DNA of 57,730 bases, filler included, from Catajapyx aquilonaris (GCA_000934665.2; 3 parts of 3 records of this genome joined end to end with filler, not necessarily neighbours in it), one strand, 5' to 3'. Shown: positions 2,057 to 52,559, counted from the whole stretch's first letter. Notes: generated by a model not told the origin, from the letters alone. Made by a program: numbers and translations.

Positions 2057-2520
2057 TACTCCATGATATGTAAGCTTATATGTGGCCTCTTAGGAAGATT
2101 CTCCTTTAATTATTATCCACTTCATTAAACATCTGCACTGTGATGGATTTTGATTGCAGGAGGAAACGGGAGGACCGCGAAAAAAAACAAAACATGGAAA
2201 ACACTCAAAACAGAGAACCCATCCTAAATCCTTCCATTTCCGGGGATCGAACTCTAGGCCTCAGGTTATTGGCGATAACCACTAGGCCAAAGTGTCCATA
2301 AGTCATGAAATCCTGACGCAGTATCTTAATATACTGCATACAAGTAAATATCAATAAAATAAAGTGACAAAATAACCCAATTTTATAGTAGGCCTACTGT
2401 ATACGTGGTAGTGGTGGTACACACTGAAAACTAGTCATGTGCCATCAATATTTCTGTAGCTGGACCACGCTTGGTATGGCTGAAAGTCTTGTAGAAACTG
2501 ACTGCTCTGCGATTATATTC

Positions 2521-2638
2521 TTAACGCACCTCTTTGTTAAGGCGATTCAACCTTTCTAGTGCTCCTGCTATGTTTACAGATGTATACTTTGGTTTGGCTG
2601 CATCCATGGCAGCTTTCTCAGCTTTTTCTTCTGTCATC
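2521..2638 (-). CDS. Probable 3' coding exon of orphan repeat-protein gene (KMTEEKAEKAAMDAAKPKYTSVNIAGALERLNRLNKE..)
   Basis: Acceptor ttacAG at 2640-2639; phase 2 matches the donor at 3916; ends at TAA 2521-2523 or at donor GTGCGT at 2529. Confidence 0.5.
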
Positions 2639-2759
2639 CTGTAATGCGAAGAATATTCACGTATTTAGGCATACCGCAAGAGCATGATTGATGGCATATG
2701 CTAACTCTCGCAAAGTCTAATATCAAATCTAGTATCTGCATGGAAGTGATTATGGTATA

Positions 2760-2917
2760 CAAGGTGATCCAAAATACATGCTAAAAGATCTACAACGCAT
2801 TTGATAACCACTAAAAGTTAACTAGACTATGCAAAAGTAGCATCTTAATAACAAGCATCTTAGTGCGAAAATATTACAACAGAAATCGGATACCGGTAAG
2901 CAATTTGGATCGCCCTG
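2760..2917. mobile_element. Tc1/mariner-type MITE (degenerate)
   Basis: TA-CAAGGTGATCCAAA ... TTTGGATCGCCCTG imperfect TIRs. Confidence 0.55.
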
Positions 2918-2931
2918 TGTATACTCACTAA

Positions 2932-3056
2932 GGGCCGGTTTCACCGAGCTCAGTATATGATAAAACCAGGGTATTTCTCAAAATCCCTATCTATTTGTAT
3001 AGATTTTCCTAAAGAACCCTGGTTTTATCATATACTGAGCTCGGTGAAACCGGCCC
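2932..3056. mobile_element. PIF/Harbinger-type MITE
   Basis: Perfect ~40-bp TIR GGGCCGGTTTCACCGAGCTCAGTATATGATAAAACCAGGG; TAA TSD both sides. Confidence 0.88.
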
Positions 3057-3916
3057 TAAGATAGTACCATATGGCCCGAAAATATCTCCCAGTTTTTATA
3101 CCAAGTGTTCAATATGTGAACCTTAGTCAAATCTCATGCCAGTCAAACCAGTTTTCATTTTTCCTGTTCAGCACAAAGATACATCAACTCATTATACACC
3201 CTGGCAAATTAGATATTTACGGCTAGTCAGTGTCTAAAAATGACAGCACAAATTAATGCAAAATTTGACAAATATATTGATATATTCCCACAACAAAAAG
3301 GTTTGATCTTGACCGGGTGTCCAAAAGCTAATGGCCACCCCTGAATCATAGACCTGCAGCCTGCCAGGCACGTCTTTCTTACGAGATAGTCAGACATTGT
3401 GCACCCTCTACCACCTTTTAGCACATTTTCCCAATGAACCCTAGAATGGTGTATTTGTCAAACTCGCCTCACACATCGCATATTAGGTGTGAGAAAGCCA
3501 CACAAAACAACGCGGTTCTTTTATAGCATCTATAAGAAATAACCCATTGAAGCTTATTAACAGCCAGCAGTGTCACGTGTAAAAAAGTTAGGGACTATTT
3601 ACCCTAGCAGCTATTTTAATTTTTTGCAAGAACCAGAGCCACTTTTACTTGTCGCTGTTGGGTTTTCTGGAGCTAACGATTAATAAATTCTTCACCTACT
3701 TCCTTCTTCAACTGAGACCTTGGACAGTGCATCATCCTGTACCAAATCATCACCACGTTTTGCAATTCAGGCAAACTAAATTAGCCCTAACTTGTATGCG
3801 GTATTTAAAATTCATAAATACTAAAATAAATTATACCACATTTATTGTTGCAGGTATTGCATGGCAGGCAGTTCATTCGATCGGCATTTAAATAAGACAA
3901 TGCATTAAGTACTCAC

Positions 3917-13630: not shown

Positions 13631-14187
13631 GGGGTGTTCAGACTGAATGGCCCTGCGTCTCTGCCCAAGATATGTCCAGCCTGATACTCATCAACTCTCT
13701 CTTCATGTGTTGTATTAGTGCTGCTCGTGTCGGTGGTATAGTTATTTTGAACGTAGACCGTGTTCGGCTCTGATTTCTAAAATAAATCGACTTTGACTTG
13801 AAATTTTACGCATATGGTGCATTTGCTATCAAAACCGACCAGATATTCAGAATCAGGGAGTCTTGCTTGATTTTCGAACATGCAAAATCACTGAACCGTT
13901 CCTTTAAGGAGGGTTATTACGCGGGTTTTTCTTGGGCTTCTCCCCCCCCCCCCCGCCCCCCATTCCCATTTCCCCCAATTTAAAGATCAAATTACGGTAC
14001 GATACGGCATACAGGTTACATCTCATTTACATGACAGTAATTATTACAGCATTACATACATTACATACATTACAATTACGCAATTACATGACAGGAATTT
14101 GACGCTAATTAAAGCACCGTAATAATACCCGTATAATATTCCTACCCTTATTGTTGTTGTGACATGTTTGTTGTGTACGGCATACAG

Positions 14188-14924
14188 GTGACGTTCCTGA
14201 TATCCGGAGGCAACCGACACGACACGTTTCGCATTGAAGGTGGTACTGGTCGCCTCGTACTCAACCGCCCTCTGGATTTTGAGCGCGTCCAGAACTACGA
14301 GCTGAACATCACCGCTCAGGACGCTGGAAGCCCGCTGCGGTTACGCAGTACCGTGTCGTTCTCTGTCGTAGTCCTTGATGTCAACGACAACAGACCAACT
14401 TTTCCATCGACCGCCTTGGTGCGACAGATACAGGAGGGGATCCCTCCTGATACACCAATCGTCACTGTATCCGCCGAAGACCCTGACTCAGGGTCGAGCG
14501 GACAGATCCTGTATTCCCTCAAGGGACAATATCCGCCAGGCCAACATTTTACTGTCGATGCGGCAACCGGTGTGGTACGAACGGTACGTCCCATCGATAG
14601 AGAGTTCGCCGATACGTTCAGACTGACCGTCGTAGCGACGGACCAGTCCCCGTCGGCATCCCTGTCGTCCGAAAAGACGCTGACAGTCATCGTCGAGGAC
14701 GTCAACGACAATGCTCCGTATTTTGTGTCTATGAACGCCGGCGTCTTAAGGGCAGGCTGGCCCCAAGGCATCCCAGTCATGCAGGTTTCCGCACGGGATT
14801 TGGATTCAGGTACCAACGGACTTGTCACATACGAGATGACTAGCGGCGATGTCAGCACCTTCAAGCTGGATAGGTCGACTGGTGTGTTGTCTCTCAACCG
14901 ACCGGTTCTGCAACCCGAGTTCAG
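14188..14924 (+). CDS. ft: Internal exon of Fat (cadherin-related tumor suppressor, FAT4-like), ~2.5 cadherin repeats
   Basis: LDFE, DVNDN (x2), IDRE and AxDxDSG cadherin motifs. FPSTALVRQIQEGIP, DTFRLTVVATD, SEKTLTVIVEDVNDNAPYFVSMNA and NGLVTYE closely resemble insect Fat as I recall it. Acceptor catacAG at 14186-14187, donor AG|GTACGT at 14925. Confidence 0.85.
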
Positions 14925-15584
14925 GTACGTATTTTGAGCAGTGTCTTCTAAGCCCAATCTGCCAAAAACAACAATGATGCCCTTCACTGGGAGTTAACGT
15001 CATTGCCAGCATAATAGTGACACATTGATTCATTTTGCTTTGGAAATGTGTGACTATTACGCGTAAGCGAAATACACTTTACATATGGTACCGTATGTTT
15101 TTTTCTTCTTCTGTTCTGCAGTAATAATATAGCAAATAGCTTTTGAAACACAGCTCTTGTCATGTGGTATAGGCTGGGTTGTGTGATTGATAGTAAACCC
15201 AGAACAAGTGGTTCACCTTTGTTATTCATTGATTCCAATCATGTTGCCAAGAGTAGTGTTGAGTGATGCTTAGTGCGTCTGTCGTTCTTCCACGAGCCTT
15301 ATTTATACAGTCGGTCTGCAGCCACCGCCATTTGACCGACCAACAATAAAACGAAAATAAAAAATAAACTATAATTCGTACAAATAATACATCACATCAC
15401 ATTCATAGTTTTCACCCTCCGCATCAACTCTCTGGATCATAACACTGCTTTAGTGTTCGCTTAACACAGCATAAAATAGTAATATCGCGATAAACATCAC
15501 GCCCTGCATTTATATTGCCCTCTATAGTCCCAATACGTTGTCTCTACGCTTCCTAACCATCGAAAGTAGTTAGAGGGCGCGGGC

Positions 15585-33665: not shown

Positions 33666-33779
33666 CTGGAAAGAGAATTGCATGTTACTTCTATGGACCT
33701 CCAGTATCTCCTCACTTTTTATTTCCAGGTACTATCGAGCTGTACTCTAGAAAAGTTCAACATATGCCAAGTGACGCAC

Positions 33780-34344
33780 CCAGCTCTCTACTTCCTCCTC
33801 TTTCCCTATGGAAAAAGCGGTGCAGCACACTGAGCATGGACTGCCTTGTTGAATGAGGTCGGTTCCTCACAGATGAAGCCAAGCTTGATCGAGATGAGTT
33901 GGACAATTGCCTGCTCATTATCCTCATAGGATGTGTCCCACCTCGAGGCGAAGAAGCAGACACTTCCACTTGTACACCTTGAAGGTCATCTGGCAGCTCT
34001 GCCCTGTCACCCCTTCCCACCCCTTCATCCTCTTCCATCACAGGTTCCAATGGTATGAACTCAGCCTCTTCCTCAGGAACCTCAATATCTGCAGCTGAGC
34101 CCTTGGGTGGGTCAGTCCTGAACTGCTCAGCAGCAGCAGTATAGGGGAGTTCAAAAGGAAACACCTCATCCCAGTACTGGTCTTTGATCAACTCAGGATG
34201 TTCCTGGTGCATCTCATCCACAATTAGGTAGGACACCTGGAGGTTGCGGTCTACTAGCCAGTTCACTTCAAAGTCATCATCATCCTCACCAAAAGGGTTC
34301 ACTAATGACTCGGCCACTTTCAGCCAGCCCATATAAAAGAAAAA
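33780..34344 (-). CDS. Bestrophin exon with Ca2+-clasp motif
   Basis: [46 protein letters not shown], diagnostic of bestrophins; AG/GT boundaries. Confidence 0.93.
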
Positions 34345-34470
34345 CTGCCAAGAAAGAAATCATCAGATGTAAAGTTTTCAGTCTCTTTTCTGATTACTAT
34401 GACATTTAAAATTAAAATTGTTATTTTTCATTTCTGATATTTTTCTTGTACATCTAAGCACCCAACATAC

Positions 34471-35137
34471 CTGAAGAAATGGAAATACTGGGAAGATGAG
34501 ATCAATCTCATATCCTGGAATCTTCTTGCTTGGGTCCAAATACTGCCTACCCATGAGTGATGCTAAGAAGAATATGTACACTGCCAGAGTCACCACCTGC
34601 GTGTAGACCAAAGGTATGCTGACCCAGTCGTAATTGAGCATCCCTCCACACAGGCCTCGAAAGTTGGACAGTTGTTGAATGAGCGTGTTCATGGCAAAGT
34701 CATCTCTTATTCTGCCCTCCTTCCTGGCCCGAGTCACTATACTTCCAGCCCATACCAGTGGCATCCAGTACTTTGGATGCGAGGTCTTCTCATTCAGGTC
34801 ATCAAATATTTTCTTTTCATTGGGCAGCATCAACCCGGCTTCAACCATGTGGTCCAACGTGGGGAACCTCTTTTTCAACTGTGAGCTCATCATGCTCAGG
34901 GTGACCACCAGGGACAGATTAACATAGCGCATGATGGTGCGTCGCATCAGACGTCCTCGATCATCCTGTCCATGGATGCAGGTGGACACAAACATTGCTA
35001 GGGAGTCAGGCCAGGGGATGCCCATGTATTGGTCCCACCAGCGCTTTATCACTATTGAGACATAGAATCCCAGTACAAATGACACTGGAATCAGGTCTGA
35101 ATACTGCTGGCAATATTGGGATATCTTCTCAAAGAAT
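34471..35137 (-). CDS. Bestrophin (Ca2+-activated anion channel, Best1/Best2-like) RFP-TM exon; first coding exon absent from contig
   Basis: IPVSFVLGFYV, RWWDQY, RGRLMRRTIMRY, KKRFPT, YDWVSIPLVYTQVV; acceptor ttgcAG, donor CAG|GTATGT. Confidence 0.95.
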
Positions 35138-35764
35138 CTGCAATATAATAATAAGAACAACATCATTCCCTTCAGTAAAAAAAAAGAGTAGTAAGACCTC
35201 TGTGGCGGAATGAAAGTACTGAAACAAGGCAGGCACATGTAAGACCTTCACCAATTGATCTAAGCTGTACCATAGGTCTTACGCAAGCAATTTCCAATAT
35301 TATACTGCTCAAAAAATCTCCTTTCTGAAAACAGTGAAATGAGCCACTCAATATAAGTGTGTTTTCTGAAATTAGAATCTTCAACATTAAGCACATTGAA
35401 TTTCTATATTAATGGTGAGAATCTATGGCCATAAAACATTTATGCACAATCGTCACCTCTTTTAGATACTGATTTTAACTATGATGCTTAAGTTTTCTAC
35501 ATGGAGACGTAAATTGGTGAATTTTAGAGGCTCTTTTTCAATGGGATTCTGCATTTTCAAGAGTAAACATTTGAAAGTCTGTGAGGATGAGTTCAGTTTT
35601 TTCCCCAAATAAAACATTGCTTTCTGCTATAAGTCTAGGCCTGTGATACACATACTGTGCCAGTTTCATGCTAATCTGAAAGTTGCTACTTTGGATCTCC
35701 TCAAGTTGCCTACATGCATTAAAACATTATCCCTATACAAATACTGTACAGCAAAACTGTTGTA

Positions 35765-38701: not shown

Positions 38702-39005
38702 TACCCCTGGGGCATATGTGGAGGCCTCCGTATGGATCTGTTTAGGTCACAAAAGAAAGACAGACAGACAGATATAGGTCTTGAAATATGTATTAGATGG
38801 AGGCCAAAATAAAGCTTGCTCCACTGTTGGACAAAATTGACCAAATGTCACTGTTGCGCTGTCCTGGCTCAAATTTGCGAAAATAGGATTGTCGCTTTAA
38901 AAAATTTCGGACTTGCATTTTTTGGAGGGGATTATTCACTATGACAGTGCTAGTTCCCCCCAACTATTTGGCCAAGTTGAATTAAGTTATGCAGATCAAA
39001 CACTA

Positions 39006-39211
39006 CACTGTAAGCCGCAAAATAATAAAAGAGCATCACTGGCGAGTCTTTCATGGAACATCAATTTTTAATGCTCTTGCGATGCTCCTGTGATACTTTT
39101 TGTTGCTAAAAGCATCACAAGAGCATTGGCAGAGCATTAGAAGAGAATTAAAAATTGATGTTCCATGAGACTCACCAGTGATACTCTTTTAATGTTTTAC
39201 GGCTTACAGTG
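39006..39211. mobile_element. Palindromic MITE with CACTG termini and TA flanks
   Basis: TA|CACTGTAAGCCG ... CGGCTTACAGTG|TA; arms pair over most of the length. Confidence 0.8.
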
Positions 39212-40949
39212 TACATAAAAAATGTGCACGATGCCCCATATTTTGATCTGCATATCATTTGCTAAACTCAATTTTAAATTTTGCGCATTCAGTGCTCCCC
39301 ATTGTAACAACCTATTGACGCATTGCCACATTGTGCAGTTGGCATTACTTTTAAAATCCAGTACTAGTTCGACGAGTTATTTGCGACAAAAAAAATGTGT
39401 CACCATGTGCTTCAAATTTATATTAAAAATTTTGGAAGGTTCCTAGCATTTTCTGTGGCCACTTTCAAGTCCCCAAAAATTGCCAATTCCTGAGTTTCAA
39501 GCCCATGTTTTCAGAACTCAAGGGGGGGAAATTACTCGCTTTCACTTTTTTATGCAGTATATCCCTGCCCATGCTAAATGGCCCCTGTTGAATATGTAGT
39601 GACTAGTTTTCCCAAACCCTCGGTGCTTGGCCCCGGCATTGGCCCCCACCCTGTGCGCACCCTCCAAACTCACCTCTGTTCCATGATGGAGAGGGTCTGC
39701 CCAGCGTCGGCCCAGGGGCAGAGCAGCGGGCAGAGCTGCAGTGCAGAGCGTCACCGGCTTGGCTGGCGGGAGGAGAAGGAATGGGAGGGAGCAGGGGGTG
39801 GGTGGGGAGGGGGACGCCAAGTCAACCAGGCTTGGAAACAAGCGCGACCGCCATTTTTAGTCTAACCAATGCCATGCAGTGCCTGTGTTGGAAGCACGAG
39901 GCTCTGTATTTCCAGGCCTACCCGGCATTTCTCCCTCCCTCTCCTCTCCCCCTCGCTCTCCCTCATTTCCCCTGCCTTGCCAGCTTGCCTTACTTCTCTG
40001 GGGCTCGTGGTGGGTGGTGCGGCCCCGGGACTCGCCCCTGGTGCTTCCCCGCGGGTCCTGCCTGCCTGCCTGGGATGCCGGCGACTCGACCCAAGAGAGG
40101 ACTGGTAGTGAGAAGAGGGCAAGGCTCGTCCGGTCAGGCTTGGAATGGCTGTGTTTGGAACATACGGGAGGAGGACTGGGGGCCAGCCCATCCCTTATTG
40201 GGTAGGTACTACAGTACGCACCAGCTACAACTAATGGTTCAAGTGTGTGCCCATGCACGGTGCACATGAAAAGGTCGAGGCGTGATGCATGGTGCGGAAA
40301 TATATTGCTAATGCGGCACCGATGTTTCGTTAATTGTTTTGATTTGTGTTTCCAAATGTGGCGTATGTAGAGAGGCACTCTAGTGTAGAGTGGTCCGAGG
40401 CTGAGGTGGGGTGGAAATTTATTGGTAAGGGGCACACAAAGCCAAATGTACTGTACATGCTAAAGTGAGACCATTTGTAGTAAGAGAAAGGAATTCTGCA
40501 AAAATACAAGGGATTTTGCCAGGGATTTCTAACAGTTATTTTTTTCCCTCTGGTTTTCCAAGTATTAAGACTTGTTTTCACTGCCGACATCATGTCGCGG
40601 AGCGCACAGTTAAAACAGAGTTTGTTTATCGTGTCGGTCCCTCTGCTCGGACGGAGACGCGAGGGTCTGGGGGGGGCTTGTGTGCGAGGACACATGGAAA
40701 GGCAGTAGAACCATCTGTTCGTGTCTTCCGCGCAAGAAATATGCGCGGTTGTGAAGCAGGTTGATGAGAAGCTCTGAAGAAAACCTGTAGCGGGGACTTG
40801 TAGTGGAAACATCTCCACTTTTCCGAACGAAGATTTCTTGCAGCAAGACATCGGCAGTGAAAATAAGGCTTTACGGCATGTTGTAGGGCTTGCATAAAGC
40901 CTGTGGGTGGATTCATCCATTGCAACTATGTGGTTCATACCCTCTATAC

Positions 40950-41445
40950 CAGGGGTATTCAACCAGTTTCTGACAAGGTCCAGTATTTACCTTTCTTGGG
41001 CCATTGAAGGTCCGGACCCCCCACCCCCGGATAAAAATATAGATTTTATATGGTACCACAGGGTTCATATTTGAAAATATAAACATGTGTAGCAAGGGTA
41101 GGAGGGCCTATCAAGACAGGGCGTATTAAGGCAATATTTCGCCCTTTATGATGTCCTGTACAGGCGTGTAGGCAGAAGAATTTCGGAGGGGGCCCATTTC
41201 GTAAGCAAAAGGTGAACAGGCCGTAAAGGGCGGGGAACGAGCCCACCGCAGGTGAAATTTTTTTGGGGTGAGGTGAGGAGCTTAGGTGAGATATGGGAGA
41301 TTTGAATGGGTGTGTATTTGATGAAATTGTAGCACTTTTTCCAAAAAATCAGGAATTAGTAATTAATCATGCTATTTCAAACTGTCCTGTATATTGTCGC
41401 AGTCCGGACAAAATTGCGTCACGGTCCGCCAGTTGAATATCACTG
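40950..41445. mobile_element. hAT (Buster/Charlie-type) MITE, same family as 871-1352, opposite orientation
   Basis: TIR CAGGGGTATTCAAC / GTTGAATATCACTG; 8-bp TSD CTCTATAC (40942-40949, 41446-41453). Confidence 0.9.
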
Positions 41446-42062
41446 CTCTATACTGTGCATATTACTAGTGTCGGTCACATTTCTGGTGCGAAACATTGTA
41501 GGTTATGCGAGGCTGTCATAAAATACTGCTAATTGTGCCACTGTTTTTATGGTCTGTTACGCAATGACTCGGTTACTCGACCACAACTGGCAGTCACACA
41601 AAGGTCATTCCATGTCAAATCATCACACAGATTGGCCTTGACCCCTCAGATTTTGATGAAACTTGCTGTATCAAGTAGTGTCCTTACATAGTTATGAATG
41701 AAAACCAGAAAAAAGATTTATTTTTTTGCCTACCATTCAAGAGTTATTAAATATTCAAATTGTGCCTAAAACTTAATGCATCTTGAAAAACTCAATAATT
41801 ATTCTCTCAGGAACCAGATATTTGTTGTCTTGGAATAATTTTAATAAATAATTTTTCTGTTACAGGTGGTGCAGGAGATGTATCCTTCCCAACTCCTCAG
41901 ATTCATGTGGATGCTGCCAGATGGATAATGGGCAATTGCAGCTGATTGGATGTGTGACTTAGCAGTAGTTTGTTGGGTGAGATCTTTTTCCCGTCTCTCT
42001 GAAGTAACAGTCACAGACAAATTTTAAGGGTAACCTGGCCATAAATATTACTGCATTAAGTC

Positions 42063-42208
42063 ACCCCTCAGCCACGCTCTCAGCCTCATTTCATGAGGTT
42101 GTCAGTGCCAGAAAATAAAACTGAGGGGAAGATAAAACACCTCTGTTAGGAAGCACTCGATTCCAATATATCCAAGGATGCGGGTGTGCCGTAAACAGGG
42201 GGACAAAT
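42063..42208 (+). ncRNA. SNORA65: Box H/ACA snoRNA, SNORA65(U65)/snR34-like, copy A
   Basis: Hairpin CCCCTCAG..CTGAGGGG, H box AGATAA (42130-42135), hairpin CCTCTGTT..AACAGGGG, ACA (42203-42205)+3 nt. Pockets GCCAC/GCCAG and TAGGAA/GCCG complement conserved 28S CUGGC-UU-GUGGC and CGGC-UC-UUCCUA. The 3' pocket is 15 nt from ACA. Confidence 0.82.
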
Positions 42209-42553
42209 ACTGCTTTGCCGTAATTGAAATGGCATTCTGGGCTAGGATTTCATGCCGGAATGAGTAGCCATTGCTTGCTACATTTAGCAAATTTGGTTGT
42301 TATGGAATTATTTGAAGTAACGTTTGTTGTTGTTTCAGGCAAGGCAGCCCTTCACATCCGGTTGGTTCCTGCACAGGTCATGGGCATTCAGTCGCAACAA
42401 GCTGCATGCGTCACTTAGGACTCGTTTGTTTGGTGAGATTATTTCTTATAACTTCCCTTGAATTTTAAGAGAAATCTACATGCAAAAGTTTGAATTTACC
42501 CCTTTGTCACGCTGATAGCCTCATTTCTTAAGGTTGTCGGTACCTCATCATTA

Positions 42554-42662
42554 AGGTGCGTTTACATGCGAGCGATTTGCTTGCACGATGTCATCGCCGA
42601 GCGATGCCGTTTCTCTCGGCAATGACATCGCGCGATCAAATCTCTCACATGTAAACGCACCT
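42554..42662. mobile_element. PIF/Harbinger-type MITE (paralogous copy 45021-45129)
   Basis: TTA|AGGTGCGTTTACATG ... CATGTAAACGCACCT|TTA. Confidence 0.85.
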
Positions 42663-42715
42663 TTAAACTGAGGGGGATATAAAATTCCTCTGTTAGTGAG
42701 CACTCGTTTCCAATA

Positions 42716-42807
42716 CAGGGTGTTCCGGAGTCGTGGGTCACTTTTTGATCACTGGTATTTCCCGATAGCAGTTATCAAAATGTGACCCACAACTCTGGAA
42801 CACGCTG
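42716..42807. mobile_element. Tc1/mariner-type MITE (paralogous copy 45183-45274)
   Basis: TA|CAGGGTGTTCCGGAGTCGTGGGTCAC ... GTGACCCACAACTCTGGAACACGCTG|TA. Confidence 0.85.
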
Positions 42808-42881
42808 TATATCCAAGGAGGCGAGTGTACTGGAACGTTGGAACAAATATTGTTATGCTATGTAATTGAAATAGTATTCTG

Positions 42882-43010
42882 GGGGTGGATTCATCAAATG
42901 CCGTAAGTAAAATTTTCTTCGTAAGCAGTAGTGACCGTAGTGACCAATAATAATTAACTAACTATGGTTACGACGAAAATTTCACTTACGACATTTGATG
43001 AAACCGCCCC
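42882..43010. mobile_element. Harbinger-like MITE (truncated paralogue 45886-45988)
   Basis: GGGGTGGATTCATCAAATG.CGTAAGT / ACTTACGACATTTGATGAAACCGCCCC. Confidence 0.75.
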
Positions 43011-43812
43011 CACGTTAGCATGTCATGCCGGAATGAGTAGCAATCACTTGCTAGATTTCACATTTTGTTGTCATGGAATTATTTGAAGTAACTTTTGTTG
43101 TGTTTCAGGCAATGCAAGAGATCTGTCCTTTCAACTCTGCAGATACCGGTACAGTTGATTCCTGTACAGGTCATGGACATGCAATCGCCGCTAGTTGGAT
43201 GTGCCACTCAGCACTGGTTTGCCTGGTGAGATACGTTTCTTTACTATTTAAATTTTAGATAACTTCTCAAATTTTAAGGAAAATACCGGTGACTCCAGAT
43301 ATAATAGCCTCGGTTATAACAGACTTTCAGTTATATCAGAGTCGAAGGGCCGGTCCCAGCATACTTCCATATATTTTCCATATATTTTTACTCCTGATAT
43401 AACAGTCTCATTTTCACCACACCTCGGCTGTAACATACCATTTCTTGGCCCCTCGGTGGACTAATATGCAGTTTTTGATTATTCAACTTCCTTGCCCCTG
43501 CGTAGGAAGGCATGGAATACTGGAAGGGGGTGAATTTTGCAGCTTTCGCTGATCTAAGATACTCAGAATCATAATTTTTTTGGTATATTTTGGCAACGGG
43601 GAGATGGCAGAAGAAAATTACATTTTTTATTTGGTCATGGCTAATTCACGGGTGGGGTAATTTTGCATTTTTGTGCATGGAAGGCAGAAAACTTGTGTAT
43701 TCGTTGCAAAAATTGTGATTTGGCTAAAACACATATTTTTCCCACTGTCCCTTGAAGTCTGGTATATCGGCAGTCAACTGCATATACACGCAAAGGTTAC
43801 TGCATCAATTGG

Positions 43813-43951
43813 CCCCTCTGCCAAGCTGATAGCCTCATTCCTTAAGGTTGTCGGTGCCTCATACTGAGGGGGATATTAAATTCCTCCGGTAGGAAGCACT
43901 CAATTTCATTGTCGCCAAGGATGCAAGTGTGCCGTAAACAGTGGTACAAAC
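43813..43951 (+). ncRNA. Box H/ACA snoRNA, SNORA65/snR34-like, diverged copy C
   Basis: Two hairpins, H box ATATTA (43873-43878), ACA at 43946-43948; 3' pocket TAGGAA/GCCG retained, 5' pocket altered to GCCAA/GCCTC. Confidence 0.65.
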
Positions 43952-44529
43952 ATTGCTTCCTTAGGAAATTTTGAACATGCTTTGCTCACTTTGTGCCATC
44001 ATGTTTAGTGGCCTAAGCCTTCGCTCACCAATGATTAATCCAGGTGCAGGCTCAGGTCTAATGTGGGATTTGAACGAGATGGGAATTCACTTTGAAGAGT
44101 GTGTCTGTGATATTCATCAATTTCCAGTCATGAATATTTTTCCCGTTTAATTGCTACGTGTCTCAGATACATGCTAATTACACGACCTCAGTCCTTGTTT
44201 TCTCATCATGGGTAGTTGATAGAGCCCCATCCATGTTGCTGTTGAAAGGAGGAAGTTCAGATTGATGTGATATGATGGATGAGGCAATCAGAGTGTCTTG
44301 AACTTGGTATTTTGGAGCACGTTGTAAATCATGCCTTGTGTTGCAGATTGTTCAACTCATCCAGTTTGCGCAGCTGTATCCTATGGGCCCTATGAAAGTC
44401 CTGGAGTTTCTGAAATTTGGATATGCTACTCAAGAAGGGTTTGTCAGGTGAGATGTGGTTTGTTTTGCTGCATTTTTGGTAACTGTTGCACATTTCTGGA
44501 TGGAAATACGGAATTAGTTGCATAAATTC

Positions 44530-44675
44530 ACCCCTCAGCCACGCTCTCAGCCTCATTTCATGAGGTTGTCAGTGCCAGAGAATAAAACTGAGGGGAAGAT
44601 AAAACACCTCTGTTAGGAAGCACTCGATTCCAATATATCCAAGGATGCGGGTGTGCCGTAAACAGGGGGACAAAT
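44530..44675 (+). ncRNA. SNORA65: Box H/ACA snoRNA, SNORA65/snR34-like, copy D
   Basis: Almost identical to copy A (offset 2467 bp); all boxes and guide sequences intact. Confidence 0.82.
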
Positions 44676-44965
44676 ACTGCTTTGCCGTAATTGAAATGGC
44701 ATTCTGGGCTAGGATTTCATGCCGGAATGAGTAGCCATCACTTGCTACATTTAGCAAATTTGGTTGTTATGGAAGTATTTGAAGTAACGTTTGTTGTTGT
44801 TTCAGGCAAGGCAGCCCTTCACATCCGGTTGGTTCCTGCACAGGTCATGGGCATTCAGTCGCAACGAGCTGGATGCGTCACTTAGGACTTGTTTGTCTTG
44901 TGAGATTATTTCCAATCAGTTCTCTTGAATTTTAAGAGAAATCTACATGCAAAAGTTTGTATTGA

Positions 44966-45315
44966 CCCCTTTGCCATACTGATAGCCACATTTCTTAAGG
45001 TTGTCGGTACCTCATCATTAAGGTGGGTGTACATGCGAGCGATTTGCTTGCACGATATCATCGTTGAGCGATGCCGTTTCTCTCGGCAATGACATCGCAC
45101 GATCAAATCTCTCACATGTAAACGCACCTTTAAACTGAGGGGGATATAAAATTCCTCTGTTAGTGAGCACTCGTTTCCAATACAGTGTGTTCCGGAGTCG
45201 TGGGTCACTTTTTGATCACTGGTATTTCCCGATAGCAGTTATCAAAAAGTGACCCACAACTCTGGAACATGCTGTATATCCAAGGAGGCTAGTGTACTGG
45301 AACGTTGGAACAAAT
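44966..45315 (+). pseudogene. snoRNA copy E, disrupted by the same two MITEs as copy B
   Basis: Duplicate of 42498-42848 including insertions. Confidence 0.75.
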
Positions 45316-45344
45316 ATTGCTATGCTATGTAATTGAAATAGTAT

Positions 45345-45885
45345 ACTAGTATTAGATATGTATATAAGGGGGCTTACCCGGCATAGCCATCTACAGCCCC
45401 CGGCTCCATCAACATCTAATCACCGAATAGTGACAACATCATAAACAAACAAGAAGAGCCAAACAAACCTGGATAAACCCGAAAACCCCCAAGGCGCGAC
45501 CGCAAAAGCAACCACCAAAACGCGCATAGACGCATACAATTTAGAGCGAAACCCTTCACCACCTCAGATTTAGAGAACCAAGAGAACCAAGAGGACCAAG
45601 AGAACCAAACCAGTGCACATTAAAACTCCTCCGGCGACGGAGCTCGCCGTACGGTGACACACCATATTCATCCATTGATCCTCTGGAGCCAAGCATCAGC
45701 CGCCAAACAGAGAGAATTGAAGCTCCTCAGAAGAGATCCCATGAGCATCCTTGAAGAAGGGGGCCAGCCAGCACCGCTCCGCAAGGCCAGCCGCATCACC
45801 CCGGAGCGGGCCTCCCTCAGCTCCGGCGTCCCGCAGTGCCACAACACGTGATCAGGAGTCTGCCGCCCCCTCCCGCAGGGACACC
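45345..45885 (-). mobile_element. 5'-truncated non-LTR retrotransposon (R1-like ORF2 C-terminus and 3' UTR)
   Basis: CPCGRGRQTPDHVLWHC zinc knuckle followed by ..GAGWPP..; absent from the paralogous block at ~42880. Confidence 0.72.
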
Positions 45886-48164
45886 GATTCATCAAATGTC
45901 GTAAGTCAAATTTTCTTTGTAAGCGGTAGTATGGTTGCTGCCACTTACAAAGAAAATTTGACTTACGACATTTGATGAAGCAGCCCACAGGTTAGCATGT
46001 TCTGCCGGAACTAGTAGCAATCACTTGCTAGATGTCACATTTTGTTGTCATGGAATTATTCGAAGTAACTTCTGTTGTGTTTCAGGCAAAATGTGCTTAC
46101 CCAGAGTCTCTCATTACATGCATTGGCTTGCTTTTCAAGCAAATTTTCTATCAAAACTCATGAAAAATGTGTTTGTTTGTTGGGACACATTGACATAATT
46201 CCTTCTTTGTGTCTAACATGTGCTGCATTGTTTATGCAGTGCAGATCACTGCTACATTAGCTGTTACAAGTGCTTTACAGAGCTTCATTCAAAAACTGCG
46301 AAATTCAATCCAGATTTTTGCCTTGTTATCTGCCCAAGAAAAACTTACGGGTGCTCTGTTAATGAGAATCCAATGCTATCCTGCCATGCACAGACCTAGT
46401 GTGGGCTCCAGCACATAGAACAGTGGTTCCTCTTGAAGCCACATGAGTGAGTCTGGCAACCCGCTCGCCCCAGTTAGCCCCAGTGAGCAATGCTAGCGCC
46501 AAATTTCAGGCTGGGGAAGACTCGTATATTAAACTGCTGTAACGTAGGAGTTGGGTGGGGCTGAGATATAAGTGGCAGTTTCGACCAGAACTCTTTCGCG
46601 TTGGTGTATTAACTATGCACCCACCCCATGCAATCGATGTACAACAAAACAACGGGGGGTTGATATTTTTTCGGACTTTTCTTTATCATCCACACCCGGA
46701 TAATCAGGAGTACAGTGTATTTATAATAAGTGTTTATAGGGTCATGGCTGGACTCTGACTGTGAATATTAATTTTGCCCCATTTTCTCATTTACAGTTTG
46801 TGCAAGTATGTGCTGTCAAAGCCCCAGTCGATGCTACCAGCATGCCAGCAAGCTTACCAACTGACGCTTTGGTTTGGCTGGACACACTCTGAGCTTACTC
46901 CCGTCAGGTCAAGAAACTGGATGCTGGAGGGTGGTTCCAGAACTGACATTGCCATATGTCAACATAGAGAGGCAACGATCTTCGTCCTTCGGTCAAGCCG
47001 TCTTCTAGAGTTCCACCTGAATGGACTAACCTATTGATATAATTATGTAAGCTGCCTTGCTCTGGTACCGTTCCCTTCTACAAGAAGATGCCTGCCAGGT
47101 TACGTTTCTATACCAGTCTACAGTCACAACAAATGCTTGACAAAAAAGGAGATAGATCGGGAGAACAACTATCATTTTGTAAATCTGATGGACTCGGTCT
47201 AACTTCTTGCCAAAGGTTCCAGATATAGCATGTTGCTTTAGGGATGGTAGCCACACTGAACTGGTAGTACTTGCCGCTTTGAGTTGTGTTTCCAATGTGT
47301 CAGTAAAAACTTAAAATCGATAATATCAGAGTTGACTTGAGCCAAAAAAAAAAGAAAAGAGAGAGAACAATACTGGAGGACAGAGAGGAAGGACTTGCAG
47401 GAGCACCATGATGATAGCGAGGCCTTTGGGAAGGAGGGAAGGGAAGGGCTTCAATCCCCCAACCATCAAGAGATCCCTTGCGGGATGCTGGCAGGGACAA
47501 CATGAGGGTGGCAGTTGGGAAGAAGACCCAGGGGCCTAATCCACGCCTTCTCATTCAAGATAGATGCAACAAGGCTCAAGTCTCCTCATGTACCATTAAA
47601 TAACAAGATGTAATCAAAGTTGGCAACATGAGACGAGCTGCGGCGGTATCTGCATTGGGGTCAGATATCACCTTTGGCTACACTTTGAGTGTAAAATTTC
47701 CTGCTTATTCACAAAACTGGTAACAATGAGAGGTCAGTGGCAGTGACTGACACGCCCACTTGTCTTGCTTGATCAAGCACACATGAAACATAGCTTGTGC
47801 TGGCTTCCTTCACCTGTACACACAATAAGCTATATTAAGCTGCAGCTTTTGATTGGTATTTTTTCAATTAGGTTGGGATATCATCCCTCGCAGTTGCTGT
47901 GGAACATTTTAAGAACATAAATGACTGACTGTTGCATGCTCATGTTCTTTAGAGGGTCCTCACCGAATTGGTGTACTCCTGCTCCGTGGCGCAGATGATG
48001 AGTGTGACCACCATAGGCATTGTGGTAAGGAAACTGTGCGCCTTGTCTTCTATAGCTCTCTGGCTAGCACACCCTGGTCTGAAAAGCTAAGATCTTGTCT
48101 GCCTGTGCCATATGAGCAGAGGAGGTATCATCAACGTTCATGCTTCAGGGGGACACCTGTTGTT

Positions 48165-50739: not shown

Positions 50740-51195
50740 GCCCCCCCTCAAACAGGTCGCATGGTATTTGCACGACCCCTTACGGGAACATGGAATCCAT
50801 AGAAAATGGATTTCTTCCATTTGCAGTTTAGCCCTCGTGCCATTATGACTTGCACACATGAAAGATGTCCCATTATTGAATCGCTGGCATGATCACACCA
50901 CATCCTAGTATCAACACTCATCTCGTCGAACGAAAAAACGTACATTCTTTGGAAACTGCTGCAACTTTGTGTGCCTGTATGTCCAGGACAACAAGGAAAC
51001 CTGGCGGACACTGAAAATTTTTTTGTCCAATAGCGTAGCGTTGTGAGTCCGGGAAGTGCTTGTAACACTTCTGACAGAGACACCTCAGAGCCAGACCCCT
51101 AAGTATATCGTCCTTCTGCCACCTGGTCCTTCTTTTCTGCACAATGCATCTGATCTGTGCATCGGTGAAAACGTTTTTCAGCACCTTGGCATACT
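50740..51195 (-). pseudogene. P-element transposase N-terminal/catalytic fragment, frameshifted
   Basis: VFTDAQI..RWQKDDI; FSFDEMSV; VQVIMARGLNCKWKKSIFYGF. Confidence 0.85.
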
Positions 51196-51708: not shown

Positions 51709-52260
51709 TCACTTGTGATGTGGGACATTATCCATCACAACCACAGTGGGCTCCTTGCCTAGGTTGAGGATCAACTGCTCATTCAACCACTGCAAGAATT
51801 TGTTGCCATTCATCTGTCCGTGATAATCTGGATTCATTTGGTTTCCACTGGAGAACAGCAGGCCGGTCCCAGGTACAAACCCCTTCTCCCCTCCAGCATG
51901 GACCACTACGAACCGTGGCCCATCTGACTGCGGCCTGGTAATGCAAGTGGCTGCTGTGCCATCCTGCCAGCCGTACTTTGATGTCGCATTCTGAAATGTC
52001 CCAGTTTCGTCCATCCAGACGTCCAGTTTTGGCTGAGGTGAATTAGGGTTGTTCCGCATTCTTCTGAGAAATGCTATTCGCTTGAGTGCAATGTCCGTCT
52101 TCTCTAGCAGCTTAAGTCGGTTGTCCATTTTTTTCCACCGGAAGCCCAGCTTCTTCAGGATCTTCCTGAAGGGCGAAATTTGACCTTGGGAGGGGACGTC
52201 TACCTTCTTGACCCCTGCCAATAGCCCGGGCTTCAATCGATTACAAATGTTGAATAGAAC
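51709..52260 (-). pseudogene. IS630-Tc1-mariner (DDE_3-type) transposase fragment
   Basis: LKKLGFRW, VWMDET, VVHAGGEKGFVP, DYHGQMN, VVVMDNVPHH; truncated before the third catalytic residue. Confidence 0.88.
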
Positions 52261-52559
52261 TGGAACTTCAACTATTCCTTGGTGATGCTCTGGATGTGCT
52301 TTATTTGTAAAGCAGACTTTCATAATATGGAATGCTATACATTACGTTTGTTGGTCAGAATTGAGTACAGTGTTATGTTATGAAAAGCAGTTTATAGTGA
52401 GTGTATTGACCGTTCGGCGAAGAAGGAAACTAATATTAGGATATAGGTATTGCAGGCGAAAAAAAAGTATGAGCCATACGTAGTATAGACAGATAGGAAC
52501 AGATAAATAGGTGAAATAGAAAGGTAAAATATAAAGAGACAGACAAGAATCCTTTTCTA

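Follow-up and report, generated by a model that had tools for sequence, protein, structure and literature searches.

Tandem SNORA65-like H/ACA snoRNA genes, probably one per intron of a repeated exon–intron host, in Catajapyx aquilonaris

Introduction

Why would the same kind of small nucleolar RNA (snoRNA) occur in one intron after another, between short exons that are themselves copies of each other? This question is raised by a locus on the plus strand of a 57.7-kb window of Catajapyx aquilonaris DNA (GCA_000934665.2; the window is the whole stretch that was analysed), in which five units of the H/ACA snoRNA type, here A to E, alternate with five paralogous exons. The favoured explanation, at a probability of about 0.78, is that of tandem SNORA65-like H/ACA snoRNA genes, one per intron of a host built from a repeated exon–intron unit of ~460 nucleotides (nt). 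All results stem from sequence analysis, and the junctions, transcripts and RNAs described below are predictions. The structural reading of the array is accurate on this basis; the functional reading would hold for copies A and D only.

Family identity and fold of the snoRNA units

The five units align over their full length and are recovered as repeat families (D2–D4 and D8). Copies A and D differ at 1 of 146 positions, and copy C is ~76% identical to copy A. Copy A features the lower stem CCCCUCAG/CUGAGGGG, the H box AGAUAA, both guides, and an ACA that is followed by 3 nt. The H box in the hinge (ANANNA) is the same in D, reads AUAUUA in C and AUAUAA in B and E, and the ending ACA plus 3 nt is common to all five copies. 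A and D adopt the canonical hairpin–hinge–hairpin–tail shape as their minimum free energy (MFE) structure, which has an internal pocket in either hairpin and an energy of -56.8 kcal/mol. When the structure derived from A is laid on the five copies, 88.2% of the cells pair, compared with 36–52% with slid partners.

SNORA65 (RF00302) is the best Rfam snoRNA family for A, D and C. In a search of 4.4 kb, copy A scores 35.8 bits (E 5.9e-4) and copy D 35.6 bits (E 6.8e-4), in both cases over the full length of the model (positions 1–127). For copy C, searched within 191 nt, SNORA65 is the top match at 16.3 bits, with an E of 0.76 that is not significant alone. The 3' hairpin of A and D has UUAGGAA and UGUGCCG-AA in common with the SNORA65 consensus, followed by the ACA tail; their 5' hairpin aligns poorly to the model.

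Guide pockets and their predicted targets on large subunit rRNA

The family in question is known from yeast and vertebrates. Yeast snR34 is the homologue of human U65 (excerpt of PMC5778458) and directs the pseudouridine (Psi) Psi2826, which corresponds to E. coli Psi2457; deletion of snR34 together with snR52 and snR67 abolishes both Psi2826 and Psi2880 (excerpt of PMC11121408). The chicken U65 orthologue lies in intron 4 of RPL12 and is assigned to 28S-3858 through its 5' hairpin (7+3 nt) and to 28S-3912 through its 3' hairpin (6+5 nt), as given in part of PMC2653536.

Targets of the array copies were scanned on L001, a 1119-nt 3' fragment of large subunit (LSU) rRNA, by scoring every U with contiguous pairing to both strands of a pocket. 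The LSU stretches were taken from metagenome contigs; at least 106 stretches contain both motifs, and the three that were tested all belong to LSU_rRNA_eukarya, at model positions ~2223–3401. The best site of the 5' pocket of A is U606 with 5+7 base pairs (bp; runner-up 7), and that of its 3' pocket is U660 with 4+6 bp (runner-up 7, on one side only). When the 5' pocket is shuffled, the observed score is attained at any site of the fragment in 2 of 5000 trials and at the same U in none of 5000; for the 3' pocket, the corresponding counts are 155 and 1 of 5000. A distance of 54 nt separates the two candidate uridines in 106 of 106 stretches among the matches listed, which is also the spacing of the published target pairs of yeast and chicken. 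The human target positions are given as 4373 and 4427, for which the literature search gave no confirmation; nor did that search find literature on a Drosophila SNORA65 orthologue.

The remaining copies are aimed less completely. Copy C has its best 3' pocket site at U660 too, with 4+8 bp, and its 5' pocket misses U606 because GCCAA and GCCUC stand in for GCCAC and GCCAG. With the pockets of B, neither U606 nor U660 is found. In the 3' hairpin of A and C, the 3' pocket strand starts 15 nt from the ACA, a distance within the ruler of 14–16 nt.

These results bear on an earlier note on this DNA, which had proposed five paralogous units of the U65/snR34 H/ACA kind. The five units were recovered as it had placed them, and their kind is borne out by SNORA65 as the best Rfam match of A, D and C and by the A/D pockets, which do aim at the two snR34/U65 uridines as judged by the LSU scan, the shuffles and the 54-nt spacing. 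In the covariance-model check that it had suggested, SNORA65 is the best family for A, D and C, at scores that all stay below the gathering score. Its guide pairs GCCAC/GCCAG and UAGGAA/GCCG are all present in A and D, are reduced to UAGGAA/GCCG in C, and are both missing from B and E.

Exons, splice sites and the repeated unit

The snoRNA units occur one per predicted intron, flanked by consensus splice sites. The exons are paralogous: a search with nhmmer and the exon alignment finds all five in the window at E 3e-29 to 2e-42, and no further full copy. A partial sixth match is found at 46058–46134 (E 1.1e-4). This sixth, degenerate exon retains its acceptor and the exon-end motif GTTTGTTGG, carries GACACAT at the donor position, and is probably the start of the terminal exon. 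The heptamer GTGAGAT directly follows each of the five exons, with differing bases beyond it, and a pyrimidine tract with CAG precedes each of them, so that donors are identical 7-mers and acceptors are conserved. The predicted junctions are 41976>42339, 42432>43109, 43225>44347, 44447>44806 and 44899>46086.

GTGAGAT is not over-represented in the window overall (9 found, 7.4 expected); six of the nine copies lie on the plus strand between 41286 and 44906. The one that follows none of the five exons is possibly the donor of an unrecognised upstream exon, and the nhmmer exon model gives no match there.

According to the remaining alternative for the unit as such, it is a dispersed repeat, i.e. 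a short interspersed element (SINE), a miniature inverted-repeat transposable element (MITE) or a satellite, that merely resembles an H/ACA RNA. Palindromic, transposon-like insertions are indeed abundant in the region, but the unit is confined to the array, with no copy outside 42.0–45.4 kb in the window, and its copies travel with paralogous exons and splice sites as a larger unit. Chance, moreover, is very unlikely to produce pockets that fit both known targets of a single family. This explanation is hardly credible.

Table 1. Features of the array, with positions counted from the first letter of the window.
Feature	Position	Strand	Remarks
Sixth plus-strand GTGAGAT	41286..41292	+	580 nt upstream of exon 1
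Exon 1	41866..41976	+	111 nt; stops in all three frames; nhmmer paralogy
snoRNA copy A	42063..42208	+	146 nt; Rfam SNORA65 match, canonical MFE, pocket scan
Exon 2	42339..42432	+	94 nt; nhmmer paralogy
snoRNA copy B	42498..42848	+	351 nt; alignment with other copies
First palindromic insertion	~42545-42662 (B), 45012-45129 (E)		inside snoRNA
Second palindromic insertion	~42716-42809 (B), 45183-45276 (E)		inside snoRNA
Third palindromic insertion	42880..43012	+	intron downstream of B; diverged counterpart 45886-45989
Exon 3	43109..43225	+	117 nt; nhmmer paralogy
snoRNA copy C	43813..43951	+	139 nt; alignment, SNORA65 top match
Exon 4	44347..44447	+	101 nt; most diverged of the exons
snoRNA copy D	44530..44675	+	146 nt; Rfam SNORA65 match, canonical MFE
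Exon 5	44806..44899	+	94 nt; recent duplicate of exon 2, 5 differences
snoRNA copy E	44966..45315	+	350 nt; alignment, duplicate of B
~540-nt insertion	45348..45885		private to intron after E; interrupts third palindromic element
Sixth, degenerate paralogous exon	46086..46183	+	nhmmer partial match and alignment
1.06-kb segmental duplication (A – exon 2 – B), source or twin	42051..43112	+	matched by 44518-46089 (D – exon 5 – E)

State of the copies and palindromic insertions

Only two or three of the five copies still look usable. A and D look intact, with every element and both guides kept. Copy C retains the 3' guide UAGGAA/GCCG, its 5' pocket reads GCCAA/GCCUC, and its 3' hairpin has a weak lower stem; the MFE structure is not canonical (-42.0, compared with -19.5 for the mapped fold). 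Judged by its remaining guide, copy C, if functional at all, probably acts on the 3' site alone. In B and E, the 3' guide is altered to UAGUGA/ACUGG, and the 3' strand of the 5' pocket has its first base changed (ACC for GCC). These copies fold canonically only once their insertions are taken out, and they are probably pseudogenes.

The lengths of B and E are due to two palindromic insertions in each, which are without counterpart in A, C and D. The first, of ~118 nt with the arms I3, lies in the 3' strand of the 5' pocket between GGTACC...CATTAA and TTTAAACTGAGG, has TTAA-like flanks, and pushes the H box more than 100 nt away from the pocket. The second, of 94 nt with the arms I6/I7, lies in the apical loop of the 3' hairpin between CCAATA and TATCC and has TA flanks. 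Together with the third element in the intron downstream of B, the region holds three different near-perfect palindromes of 94–135 nt. They may be MITE-like; since no other copies of them occur in the window, this designation is based only on the palindromic form and the TTAA-/TA-like flanks. Their weak Rfam matches to unrelated microRNA precursor families of plants and animals (MIR862 at 42.7 bits, MIR7486 at 35 bits) reflect long hairpins only. The ~540-nt insertion after E is C-rich with short GAACCAAGAG-like repeats and gives no Pfam signal and no other copy in the window. A novel and decidedly improbable reading of B and E is that, as transposon hairpins in an H/ACA scaffold, they yield new small RNAs rather than being dead.

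Duplication history

Two levels of duplication can be told apart. At the older level, units 1–4 are 65–87% alike across all parts, and only the donor 7-mer is invariant. At the younger level, the 1.06-kb block (A – exon 2 – B) and its match (D – exon 5 – E) are 96% identical over 830 ungapped nt and 90–91% thereafter; the ~540-nt insertion is found only in the second copy of the block. B and E share their palindromic insertions, which are thus older than the block duplication. The order of events is as follows: repeated duplication of the exon–intron unit came first, insertions into the ancestor of B came next, and the later block duplication gave rise to D – exon 5 – E, by which one good and one apparently dead gene were copied together. 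Growth by duplication of exon–intron units, as proposed in the earlier note, can be seen directly, since exons, splice sites, snoRNAs and intron flanks are all paralogous, and its description of paralogous exons of 94–117 nt with kept splice sites likewise held on nhmmer search and on inspection of donors and acceptors.

Evidence weighing against the interpretation

A number of observations count against tandem SNORA65-like genes as the explanation of the locus, and they concern family assignment, targeting, constraint and the state of the copies. A search of the whole window with Rfam at gathering thresholds yields no match, and every SNORA65 score is at most about half of the gathering score of this family, 70 bits. 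Standard annotation therefore misses the copies of the array, which would by function be guides of the SNORA65/snR34 type and are, at half the gathering score, not members by the Rfam criterion. Covariation is uninformative, since only one pair carries changes on both sides and shuffles equal that; the sequences are too few and too alike. The junctions and the ~146-nt RNA are predicted, and the targets were scored on LSU rDNA of other eukaryotes instead of Catajapyx 28S.

Further points of this kind concern the 5' pocket. The distance from pocket to box in H/ACA RNAs follows a ruler of ~14 nt (excerpt of PMC5778458), whereas the 5' pocket lies 23 nt before the H box in A and D and 17 nt in C. 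The excess in A and D corresponds to an A-rich spacer of 9 nt, by which the guide GCCAG is separated from the lower stem. In addition, the 5' strand of this pocket has four free bases (CCAC) between both stems, so that the count of 7 bp takes three pairs from the lower stem. In view of the 23-nt spacing and the four free bases, use of the 3' pocket, by which A and D would guide modification of the uridine facing it, is rated likely, and use of the 5' pocket less sure.

Among the copies, two show clear damage and a third is doubtful. Among the old paralogues, intron flanks are 69–82% and exons 65–79% identical, compared with 71–87% for the snoRNA. Flanks and exons are hence about as alike as the snoRNA, and the comparison of paralogues shows no extra constraint on the RNA.

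This state of the copies could also mean that the whole array is a decaying relic without functional snoRNA, and that a working SNORA65 orthologue resides elsewhere, e.g. in the intron of a ribosomal-protein gene, as does vertebrate U65 in RPL12 (PMC2653536, in part). The insertions and mutated guides of two of the five copies, the poor folding of a third, the uniform divergence of snoRNA, exons and flanks, the non-canonical spacing of the 5' pocket and the transposon-like insertions in three introns would all fit such a relic. However, all elements of A and D are intact with the canonical fold as MFE, the family whose targets their guides match is shared by yeast and vertebrates as a conserved one, and the five donors and acceptors are intact. 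A and D are also part of a young duplication in which they are 98–100% identical, compared with 90–96% for the rest of the block. A relic is on balance rather improbable, and tandem snoRNA genes with A and D as the usable copies remain the preferred explanation.

Coding potential of the host RNA

A further point concerns the host. One frame of the predicted spliced RNA has no stop between the late part of exon 1 and a point within exon 6, exons 2–5 included; this open stretch is unusually long, at ~165 codons, ~137 of them counted from the first ATG. In mononucleotide shuffles that keep exons 2 and 5 tied, the frame from exon 2 to exon 6 stays open in 75 of 20000 trials. The snoRNAs might accordingly be real and the host not a dedicated long non-coding RNA: the repeated exons might encode a small Cys/His-rich protein, or the array might lie in the spliced untranslated region (UTR) of a coding gene with coding exons that escaped recognition or are situated beyond the window. 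The ratio of nonsynonymous to synonymous divergence (dN/dS) agrees with such a host for exons 2/5 versus exon 3, where it is 0.27–0.30 in the homologous frame and 1.3–1.7 in the two other frames, as does the position of 4 of the 5 differences between exons 2 and 5 at third codon positions (p 0.045). There is also a precedent in Drosophila dUhg6, a "non-coding host" whose introns were later recognised as part of the 3' UTR of the coding gene mfl (excerpt of PMC1821038).

Other comparisons speak against coding exons. Exon 1 contains stops in each of its three frames as well as an upstream ATG, and exon 4 is read by the ~165-codon open reading frame (ORF) in a frame that is non-homologous to that of exons 2, 3 and 5. 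Exons 2 and 3 differ at 10, 5 and 10 sites of codon positions 3, 2 and 1, respectively, hence without an excess at third positions, and dN/dS in the homologous frame is 0.66–1.05 for all pairs that involve exon 1 or 4. The peptide of exon 3 has no relatives at E <= 10 (four candidates, proteins of 71–2000 amino acids). The 27 Pfam queries of exon frames and array ORFs gave nothing at E <= 10 except one chance-level match of a minus-strand ORF, and a descent of the exons from RpL12 or some other coding gene was rejected, as they give no Pfam signal. Coding exons were also sought in the flanks: 108 of the 157 ORFs of at least 55 amino acids beyond 35.5 kb were scanned with Pfam and gave two sub-threshold matches only, namely a transposase fragment (TNP-like) and a chance match to an opioid peptide, so that transposase fragments are the only domains there. 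The other 49 ORFs comprise 20 in the array plus 6 scanned separately, and 23 short ones at 51.8–57.7 kb that were unscanned.

Taken together, the host RNA is most likely non-coding, at odds of about two to one, and it is called so only because recognisable protein signal is absent. A coding host is unlikely, with a real share of credence all the same. The statement of the earlier note that the exons do not keep a reading frame stands as far as exon lengths are concerned, which are not multiples of three, and fails for the spliced RNA with its ~165 open codons. A bolder variant, in which amplification of the host exons assembled a Cys/His-rich ORF of that length across four duplicated exons that is translated or becoming so, i.e. 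a coding gene born from a snoRNA host, is decidedly improbable.

Neighbourhood of the array

Upstream of the array, on the same strand and at a distance of 1.7–2.2 kb, lies a GC-rich island (39600–40200) with a CCAAT motif and a pyrimidine tract of ~50 nt (39930–39980); from its composition, it might be the promoter of the host with a start of the terminal oligopyrimidine (TOP) type. No other snoRNA is found upstream in the host, with no Rfam match at E <= 1 in 39300–41900. A candidate remnant of a sixth snoRNA near 41640 (motif TTGACCCCTCAG) was discarded, as it has no nhmmer support. A long inverted repeat (acactacactgtaagccg ... cggcttacagtgtac) around an internal palindrome, at 39000–39230, constitutes a transposon-like hairpin element upstream of the array.

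Downstream of the array, sub-threshold transposase matches are found on the minus strand at 50751–51098 (TNP-like RNase H N-terminal, E 4e-4) and 51709–52341 (DDE_3, E 1e-4), which are probably decayed DNA transposons. Two protein-coding loci lie elsewhere in the window. On the minus strand, two adjacent open frames at 33757–35247 match the bestrophin channel family PF01062 of Pfam, at E 2e-92 and 8e-24. The stronger match is the exon at 34378–35247, of 289 amino acids, whose best named relatives are insect and crustacean bestrophins at 70–76% identity, in keeping with nuclear DNA of arthropod origin. On the plus strand, an open frame of 266 amino acids at 14137–14937 features three cadherin repeats (PF00028, E 7e-44) and is probably a single exon of a large cadherin gene.

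Proposed biogenesis and function

The units are inferred to form one transcription unit. By analogy with established intronic H/ACA snoRNAs, RNA polymerase II would produce the host transcript, and splicing would use the conserved CAG and GTGAGAT sites. Each excised intron would be debranched and trimmed to the RNA that is protected by dyskerin/Cbf5, Nop10, Nhp2 and Gar1, and the expected product is an RNA of ~146 nt that ends 3 nt after the ACA. The 3' pocket of A and D (UAGGAA ... GCCG) would present the U of CGGC-UC-UUCCUA in the active site, the equivalent of yeast Psi2880. Their 5' pocket (CCAC with the neighbouring CAG ... GCCAG) would act likewise on the first U of CUGGC-UU-GUGGC, the equivalent of yeast Psi2826 and E. 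coli Psi2457. B and E would be dead or orphan, with mutated guides and two transposon-like palindromes within each RNA.

Significance

The target uridines lie beside the peptidyl-transferase centre, and one of them is conserved from E. coli (Psi2457) to yeast (excerpt of PMC11121408). A likely arthropod guide for both uridines fills an annotation gap that is left by the Rfam thresholds. The locus can further be read as a compact record of the birth and death of snoRNA genes, with unit duplication, transposon hits, guide loss and block duplication side by side. The locus also shows that the tandem layout of exon plus intron, best known from mammalian orphan C/D arrays, exists in a small array of a canonical H/ACA rRNA guide. 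The view of H/ACA guide function is unchanged by the array.

Comparison with known systems

Vertebrate SNORA65 (U65) and yeast snR34 are the nearest counterparts of the single unit. Like them, the predicted RNA is a two-hairpin H/ACA guide of ~130–146 nt, its 3' pocket has UUAGGAA and GCCG as in the Rfam consensus, and its pockets face two uridines of LSU domain V that are 54 nt apart (2826/2880 in yeast, 3858/3912 in chicken, as given in the excerpts cited above). Its 5' hairpin is different in sequence from theirs, and the 3' strand of the pocket in it is long and A-rich, with 23 nt to the H box. The array consists of five tandem paralogues, whereas SNORA65 is single copy. The hosts differ as well: chicken U65 resides in RPL12 (PMC2653536, in part), whereas the exons of the array carry no ribosomal-protein signal.

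The GAS5-like genes of vertebrates and the Drosophila Uhg genes resemble the host of the array by short, poorly conserved exons and introns with a single snoRNA each. In the gas5-like gene of chicken, the exons are shorter than 100 nt, and neighbouring introns hold paralogous snoRNAs (PMC2653536, in part). These hosts mostly carry different C/D snoRNAs, whereas the array repeats one H/ACA family together with the exon; its transcript, its 5'TOP start and its non-coding status are predicted at most.

SNORD113/114, SNORD115/116 and rat Bsr, tandem arrays in long non-coding RNA hosts, share with the array a repeat unit made of exon, intron and one snoRNA. Non-allelic recombination and conversion shape the evolution of such arrays, in which sub-families are found (excerpt of PMC11028025); here, there are 5–6 units (five full ones and the degenerate sixth exon) and a higher-order duplication of 1.06 kb. 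These known arrays are box C/D, orphan, imprinted, eutherian and present in tens to hundreds of copies, whereas the array is H/ACA, is directed at canonical rRNA sites, has five copies and belongs to an arthropod. Clusters of H/ACA isoforms have reportedly been described for Drosophila by Huang et al. in 2005 and by Tycowski and Steitz in 2001. A narrow search found no H/ACA example in print of a tandem exon–intron–snoRNA unit, which does not show its absence.

Among arthropods, the cluster in the 3' UTR of Drosophila mfl, with four DmSnR60 isoforms, one per intron, is similar in that isoforms in successive introns arose by local duplication; unlike the array, it is of the box C/D type and lies in a protein-coding gene (excerpt of PMC1821038). 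It is standard for an intron to hold one snoRNA and for intronic snoRNAs to undergo local cis-duplication (PMC2653536, PMC1821038 and PMC11028025), and understudied genomes may hold more tandem exon–intron snoRNA arrays (PMC11028025, in part). Set beside these systems, the gene of Catajapyx is of an ordinary kind, and its tandem layout is uncommon.

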